This document shows positions 11,608 to 12,660 of a stretch of 12,660 nt of DNA, in pieces (within the stretch, counting starts at the first letter, position 1; each line of letters starts with the position of its first letter). The notes beneath the pieces are model-generated. The model saw only the letters and a list, made by a program, of their open reading frames with translations. It was not told the origin of the DNA and searched no databases. Made by a program: the position numbers and the translations under genes. This stretch comes from a virus. Its lineage: Duplodnaviria > Heunggongvirae > Uroviricota > Caudoviricetes. The stretch is from IMG/VR virus record IMGVR_UViG_2896601577_000006; one strand, given 5' to 3'.

Positions 11608-12660
11608 ATGGCAGTACGAAAACTCACCACTGGGAAATGGCTTTGCGAATGTTACCCCGCCGGACGAAGTGGGCGTCGTGTGCGTAAACAATTCGCCACC
11701 AAAGGCGAAGCACTGGCTTTTGAGCGCCACACGATGGAAGAAACCGAAGCAAAGCCCTGGCTGGGTGAATCAGTGAATCGTCGAACACTGAAAGACGTGG
11801 TTGAGCTATGGTTCAAACTACATGGTAAATCTCTGACAGCTGGGCAGCATGTCTATGACAAATTGCTGTTGATGGTTGACGCTCTGGGCAATCCTCTTGC
11901 AACCGATCTCACCTCTAAAATGTTTGCCCACTATCGAGATAAACGCCTGACAGGCGAGATCTACTTCAGCGAGAAATGGAAGAAAGGAGCAAGCCCGGTC
12001 ACCATTAACCTGGAGCAAAGCTATCTAAGTAGTGTTTTTAGCGAACTATCCCGTCTGGGCGAATGGTCGTATCCGAACCCACTGGAGAACATGCGAAAAT
12101 TCACCATCGCAGAAAAAGAGATGGCATGGCTTACCCATGAGCAGATTGTTGAATTGCTGGCTGATTGCAAACGTCAGGACCCAATTCTGGCACTGGTAGT
12201 TAAGATATGCTTAAGCACAGGCGCACGCTAGCGTGAAGCCGTAAATCTTACCCGCTCACAGGTGACCAAATACCGAATTACCTTTGTCAGAACGAAGGGG
12301 AAGAAAAACAGAAGCATCCCTATCAGTAAAGAGCTTTACGAAGAGATCATGGCGCTTGATGGGTTCAATTTCTTCACAGACTGCTATTTTCAATTTTTAT
12401 CCGTGATGGAAAAAACGTCTATCGTGCTCCCTCGCGGTCAACTCACACACGTTCTGCGCCATACGTTTGCGGCGCACTTCATGATGTCGGGTGGAAACAT
12501 TCTGGCCTTACAAAAAATTCTCGGACACCACGATATAAAAATGACTATGCGTTACGCACATCTGGCACCGGATCATCTGGAAACGGCGCTCCGTTTCAAT
12601 CCTCTGGCAACGCTGCCAAGTGGCGACAAAGTGGCGGCAGCGGTTGGCATTACCCCGTAA
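11608..12660 (+). pseudogene. int: P2-family tyrosine integrase interrupted by a single in-frame amber codon
   Basis: MAVRKLTTGKWLCECYPAGRSGRRVRKQFATKGEALAFE... aligns with P2 Int. The frame is continuous from 11608 to TAA 12658-12660 except for TAG at 12229-12231 (ICLSTGAR*REA, where homologues have W). The downstream part keeps HVLRHTFA and RYAHL catalytic motifs. ORF-track pieces are 11452..12231 and 12262..12660. Confidence 0.85.
12621..12642. repeat. putative prophage att core, int-proximal copy (direct repeat of 3280-3301)
   Basis: TGGCGACAAAgTGGCGGCAGCG, 21/22 identical to 3280-3301, lying within the last 13 codons of int. Confidence 0.55.

Follow-up and report, generated by a model that had tools for sequence, protein, structure and literature searches.

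The stretch of viral DNA analysed here (IMG/VR virus record IMGVR_UViG_2896601577_000006, Caudoviricetes; 12,660 nt, hereafter the window) carries a tyrosine integrase gene, int, which is interrupted by a single amber codon and which, as judged from its reading frame, is an integrase pseudogene rather than a working member of its family. We consider it very likely that the locus as a whole represents ordinary decay, i.e. an integrase amber mutation in a grounded Shigella prophage eroded by insertion sequence (IS) elements. The int frame occupies positions 11608 to 12660 on the plus strand and comprises 350 codons and a terminal TAA (1053 nt). A preliminary description of this DNA had reported one otherwise intact frame across these 1053 nt, and translation bears this out: there is exactly one internal stop, TAG at 12229-12231 (plus strand), which is codon 208 and stands in the protein context ...KICLSTGAR*REAVNLTRSQ.... 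The upstream open reading frame (ORF) is called as ending at 12231, and what survives of it (11608-12228, plus strand) encodes a 207-residue N-terminal fragment ending at Arg207, which matches PHROG integrase families. The closest intact E. coli orthologue, the 350-residue integrase of E. coli 1EC213 (NZ_CP061101.1, WP_000290937.1), has TGG at codon 208, and only 3 bases in 1261 nt distinguish the two int regions, namely position 11584, which is non-coding, position 11776, where a G-to-A change leads to D57N, and position 12230, where G in 1EC213 is replaced by A in the window, turning TGG (Trp) into TAG. The earlier proposal of a single TGG-to-TAG change is thus confirmed.

Profile and structure searches were made on a conceptual read-through product with Trp restored at codon 208. 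This product matched the Pfam families PF24624 (Int_N; 108.9 bits, 2.3e-31, residues 58-165) and PF00589 (Phage_integrase; 78.5 bits, 6.8e-22), both above the curated cut-off, as well as the structures of the HP1 integrase catalytic domain (1AIH, E 6.5e-58) and of P2 integrase (5C6K, E 1.1e-46; also 5DOR). The HP1 and P2 structures both align across the site of codon 208, and the aligned motif in each is TGARW. We then aligned the window integrase (Int) with eight Peduoviridae homologues that are 36-99% identical to it, those of E. coli 1EC213, Salmonella SEN1, Aeromonas phiO18P, Haemophilus HP2, a Pseudomonas Pf phage, P2, pro147 and Klebsiella 3LV2017. Position 208 is Trp in all eight, including P2, for which the preliminary description had given this residue, and also in the HP1 Int structure. 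R207, K230, H281, R284, H307 and Y316 form invariant columns across the eight homologues. The stop falls directly 3' of the box I arginine, R207, and ahead of the other five residues, just as the preliminary description had placed it between box I and the HxxR and Tyr residues; K230, H281, R284, H307 and Y316 are all still encoded in the untranslated rest of int (12232-12660, plus strand).

The 207-residue product retains the arm-binding domain, the core-binding domain, the first approximately 40 residues of the catalytic domain and Arg207, and lacks the other five catalytic residues, the tyrosine nucleophile among them. Because the tyrosine recombinase mechanism needs the residues lost downstream of the stop, this product would be unable to cleave and rejoin DNA, and recombinase activity would be lost. 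The locus therefore matches the family profiles and encodes the R-K-H-R-H/W-Y residues of tyrosine recombinases, though not in an uninterrupted single frame. A natural end of the protein at codon 208 was found in no relative, neither among the eight aligned homologues, all of which extend approximately 130-140 residues beyond this codon, nor in the phage collection, in which 509 records matched and 339 of these span 80% of the protein or more.

The truncated gene is not peculiar to a single genome. The exact 207-residue product is WP_241547477.1 of Shigella boydii (39 contigs). Two equally long variants with a single residue replaced occur on 6 contigs (WP_000290945.1) and on 155 contigs (EIQ63401.1/VDG85950.1, from S. 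dysenteriae 225-75 and S. boydii). Approximately 200 contigs thus carry one of the three products, under the name of S. boydii or S. dysenteriae; they come from NCBI, ENA and independent raw-read (Logan) assemblies and include complete genomes and drafts. As the TAG itself recurs in assemblies made independently from raw reads, A at position 12230 is a true base passed on by descent. Over the 11,053 nt that they share, the window and CP026867.1 are 100% identical. The TAG allele was found in none of 877 complete E. coli genomes matching a 61-mer centred on the codon, the best match being 60/61 and none 61/61.

The surroundings of int show how far the element has decayed. We compared the window by blastn with the intact prophage of 1EC213 (L002), which lies between ybjL and rcdA. 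Positions 1-10493, from ybjC through the tail sheath gene, are 96.8% identical and positions 11262-12660 are 99.7% identical to 1EC213. The 768 bp in between (10494-11261, minus strand) are a copy of IS1 with insA/insB, recognized from the gap in the alignment and from its IS1 Pfam domains, and they stand where approximately 26 kb (L002 13331-39401) are missing. In 1EC213 this missing segment holds invertase, tail-fibre, baseplate, lysis, head, terminase and replication genes, and also cII, an apl-like gene, cI and the start of a small ydcA-family gene upstream of int. The 3' remnant of the ydcA-family gene, which belongs between cI and int, is cut by IS1 and remains at 11262-11419 (plus strand), where the alignment with L002 resumes at 39402 within the coding sequence 39368-39559 and a match to PHROG 6000 was found. 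No target-site duplication flanks IS1 (GTTGAAGTG versus GCTCTTTGT), as is expected because the element sits at a deletion junction. The present order of the element is ogr-D-U-T-E-FII-FI, IS1, int'. The same IS1-junction architecture was found in four complete genomes and in draft and raw-read assemblies, and all window-type genomes examined (L003-L008) have it. The transposase genes of IS1 are oriented away from int.

A sister group of genomes (L009, L010, L012-L014, L016-L018) also has the TAG. Its members have retained cI and the apl-like gene together with a truncated cII, their dam and gpA genes are truncated, and the insertions found in them are different ones (IS1, IS3-family and IS66-family). 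The two sub-clades differ at 4 positions in the int region and by approximately 20 single nucleotide polymorphisms (SNPs) per 9.5 kb of chromosomal flank, and they share A at 12230 as well as A at 11584. An exact look-up with the sheath protein returned window-type genomes only and no genome of the sister sub-clade. Because the TAG is common to a sister sub-clade which retains cI and apl, it is by parsimony older than the approximately 26-kb deletion, and the nonsense mutation would have arisen in the common ancestor of both sub-clades. D57N, encoded at 11776, is confined to the sub-clade of the window, while the other carriers and the intact orthologues have Asp at this position; this replacement is probably drift after inactivation.

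We propose that the element entered the chromosome between ybjL and rcdA as a 186/HP1-type (Peduoviridae) prophage, with the 3' end of rybB as its integration site, and that a G-to-A transition in an ancestor of the S. boydii/dysenteriae lineage later changed the TGG codon of Trp208 to amber. The truncated Int would have been catalytically dead and the prophage unable to excise, i.e. grounded. The stranded prophage would then have decayed differently, and neutrally, in its descendants: the sub-lineage of the window would have lost approximately 26 kb through the IS1-associated deletion, and the sister sub-lineage would have acquired several IS elements while cI and apl were kept. What is left agrees with a grounded prophage, as prophage genes bounded by att sites are present and the excision machinery and essential phage genes are lost. 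The order of TAG and deletion fits the grounding model of prophage decay, according to which loss of the recombinase precedes erosion (PMC6379469). The preliminary description had held that the amber codon locks the element in the chromosome. This is plausible as history, since the TAG predates the deletion; in the window as it stands, however, IS1 has replaced approximately 26 kb including apl and cI, and full-length Int alone would not mobilise the element because apl (the excisionase gene), cI and the upstream operon region are gone.

Several points weigh against this account. We infer the inactivity of the protein and the failure of excision from sequence rather than demonstrating them directly. 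Only approximately 10 kb upstream of int were seen in the sister sub-clade, so that another disabling lesion may have preceded the TAG. In addition, the int region could have passed between the sub-clades by recombination rather than by descent, and low-level read-through of a UAG followed by C may occur.

Recurrence of the lesion might indicate a mutational hot spot at codon 208 or selection acting on it, truncation right after Arg207 being favoured. Two other loci speak for this: L011 (10001-11053) has TGA at codon 208 in an unrelated background, and L015 (10001-11053) has TAG at codon 208 on an int haplotype with approximately 10 other differences. Their chromosomal flanks are separated from the Shigella clade by 65-97 SNPs per 9.5 kb, a distance like that of E. 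coli 1EC213. However, a look-up with the exact 207-residue sequence could return truncations at codon 208 only, and control look-ups with the predicted products of nonsense transitions at ten other codons found nine of the ten in the collection, some of them as partial proteins at contig ends. Three of the ten controls were inspected (W124, W153 and W174). Two backgrounds have a genuine TAG in place of W124 (L019, L020), and the same holds for W153 (L023, L024); the W174 product stems from a rearrangement and not from a point mutation, and many of the matches of the other controls are contig-end partials. There is also no Dcm site (CCWGG) in CGCTGGCGT around codon 208, and TGG is alone among codons in that two different transitions turn it into a stop. 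With W124 and W153 recurring alike in a very large collection, we rejected the hot spot as an ascertainment effect and regard it as very unlikely.

It is conceivable that the 207-residue fragment has been retained as a functional DNA-binding protein, for example occupying 186-type arm and core sites and hindering the integration of incoming relatives. The ORF, a promoter-like site in front of it and both pairs of arm-type repeats do survive in two sub-clades amid differing decay. The promoter-like site lies directly 5' of int (TTGACA-17-AAAAAT, 11555-11583, plus strand) and is a consensus match only; as three such sites were found versus 1.9 expected in shuffled sequences, it is weak. Two non-synonymous changes (D57N, R113H) and one synonymous change were found in the fragment, as expected without constraint, these counts being too few for a test. 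The region after the stop is preserved equally well, so that preservation reflects youth rather than selection. Retention of the fragment for its own sake is thus highly improbable in our view. The same low rating applies to an extended version, in which the Shigella lineage keeps the catalytically dead fragment to block integration or excision of related phages and truncation after box I is both recurrent and favoured, having been seen in three backgrounds.

Full-length, active Int might still be made with the help of an amber-suppressor tRNA or by natural read-through. A UAG with C as the next base terminates translation comparatively weakly, and supE-type suppressors exist in laboratory strains of E. 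coli. Amber suppressors are not a known feature of natural Shigella isolates. No tRNA gene, and hence no suppressor tRNA, was found within the window, all intact homologues have Trp at codon 208, and int therefore does not present itself as a gene with programmed read-through or suppressor dependence. In addition, apl and the region upstream of int in the cI-int operon are gone, and a substitution after the stop, P321L, has accumulated in the sister clade. Continued synthesis of active Int is extremely unlikely, and the supE scenario is hypothetical. The closest phage record, Escherichia phage vB_EcoM-813R9, which is 99.7% identical, was considered as proof of a living phage and was not used: its record has the host flanks rcdA and ybjJ and is a prophage extract. 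An error of sequencing or assembly in an actually intact gene has a negligible probability as the source of the TAG, for although the same genome record contains single-base homopolymer indels in gene T that are absent from short-read assemblies, and is thus not error-free, the lesion at codon 208 is a substitution and not a homopolymer indel, and the truncated product recurs on the 39, 6 and 155 contigs from NCBI, ENA and independent raw-read assemblies described above.

An amber mutation in a grounded prophage remains our preferred explanation, and the type of integrase can be specified further. The preliminary description had compared the gene with P2 Int; the two share family and motif, but the nearest type is 186/HP1, with 49% identity to HP2 Int versus 39-40% to P2 Int. 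Judged from its residues and sites, the integrase is of the 186/HP1 type and not of the P2 type in the narrow sense. Three N-terminal residues have been described as discriminators, W, E and Y in the 186/HP1 group versus Y, D and R in the P2 type (PMC3448106); the window Int has W11, E14 and Y16 (KWLCECY), and the P2-type sequences in our alignment have Y, D and R. Furthermore, tandem arm-type repeats are found on both sides of the core, and their reverse complement fits the consensus of 186-type arm sites, tgccGCCActt (PMC3448106). The pair at the 3' end of int reads AAGTGGCGACA / AAGTGGCGGCA (12618-12640), an equivalent pair lies next to ogr (3278-3299), and the form common to both arms is TGGCGACAAA(A/G)TGGCGGCAGCG. 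Both pairs are still intact and represent candidate arm sites: TGGCGACAAAATGGCGGCAGCG (3280-3301, no strand assigned), which adjoins ogr and is shared with the int 3' end, would be the P' arm, and TGGCGACAAAGTGGCGGCAGCG (12621-12642, no strand assigned), which lies within the int 3' end and agrees with the 186-type consensus, the P arm. Intact relatives and those of the sister clade have the CI, Apl-like and CII switch next to this int; in the window it is deleted.

The attachment sites point to the small RNA (sRNA) gene rybB as the target. The left att core, ATGGGTTTTTTGTTnTCTnAAATTTAT (3211-3237, no strand assigned), overlaps the rybB terminator and is a direct repeat of a sequence at 11128-11154 in the identical locus L005; this right copy lies 68-94 nt past the end of the window, beyond the int stop. 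The RybB gene itself is full-length (3146-3224, plus strand; Rfam RF00110, 105 bits). The 186-type prophage thus uses the 3' end of rybB as attB and reconstitutes it, in the manner of relatives that target tRNA genes. A literature search found no paper naming rybB as an integration site of P2-like phages.

The remaining late genes ogr, D, U, T (tape measure), E/E', FII (tube) and FI (sheath) occupy 3302-10446 on the minus strand, as identified from their ORFs and from Pfam matches on the identical locus L005. Gene T (4943-8265, minus strand) has two 1-nt deletions in C/G homopolymer runs, at approximately 5202 and 7737, which split it into ORFs of 183 and 906 residues, the latter running into gpU. 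An intact T of 1025 residues is present in the sister genome L004 and in the short-read assemblies L040 and L041, which have the same sheath protein, and L006 shows other single-base deletions; instead of being real, the frameshifts may stem from homopolymer errors of long-read sequencing in CP026867.1. The ybjM ORF (735-1094, minus strand) starts with TTG and has 119 residues, as against 125 in 1EC213 and in L040, a short-read assembly from Shigella; the annotation of CP026867.1 (L039) has no such gene. Either a further minor lesion or faulty assembly could account for this. In some relatives, a gene of 558 residues with SNIPE/T5orf172/MUG113 nuclease domains replaces the ydcA-family gene between cI and int (L011 8242-9918; L019 741-2417; L025 742-2418). 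This makes the cI-int interval a variable cargo slot, perhaps one for a defence gene.

Integrase pseudogenes in grounded prophages eroded by IS elements are a well-known kind of object, and the locus is a new instance rather than a new phenomenon; no paper on this specific Shigella remnant or pseudogene was found in a literature search. Its significance lies in annotation and hardly beyond: the appropriate label is integrase pseudogene (W208amber) in a rybB-associated 186/P2-type prophage remnant, and not two 'hypothetical proteins'. It is nevertheless a tidy example of prophage decay, in which the recombinase was knocked out first, and IS insertions particular to each lineage and the large deletion at IS1 came later, a pattern which fits the IS-driven genome reduction typical of Shigella. 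In addition, the shared TAG could act as a lineage marker for the S. boydii/dysenteriae clade.

Among known systems, the closest counterparts of the gene are the 186/HP1-type integrases (1AIH; PMC3448106), which have the same domain order, the TGARW box I, the R-K-H-R-H-Y residues, the W-x-x-E-x-Y motif and tandem arm repeats. Elements of the 186/HP1 type likewise insert at the 3' end of a gene for a small RNA and restore that end. The element described here differs from them in its target, which is the sRNA gene rybB and not a tRNA gene, and in the interruption of int at codon 208. P2 integrase (5C6K, 5DOR) belongs to the same family, has the same STGARW motif and can be aligned over residues 49-334. 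However, its identity is only approximately 39-40%, and the P2-type arm sites (tgTGGaCa) and the C/Cox switch are not found in the relatives of this element, which carry CI, an Apl-like protein and CII instead. As regards its fate, the element resembles the grounded or cryptic E. coli prophages DLP12, e14, Rac and Qin, in which a mutation of the recombinase gene strands the prophage, IS elements and deletions erode it, and att sites and some genes persist. In contrast to these, the order of events can be read here from sister lineages, and the remnant is of the 186/P2 type and resides in Shigella at rybB.
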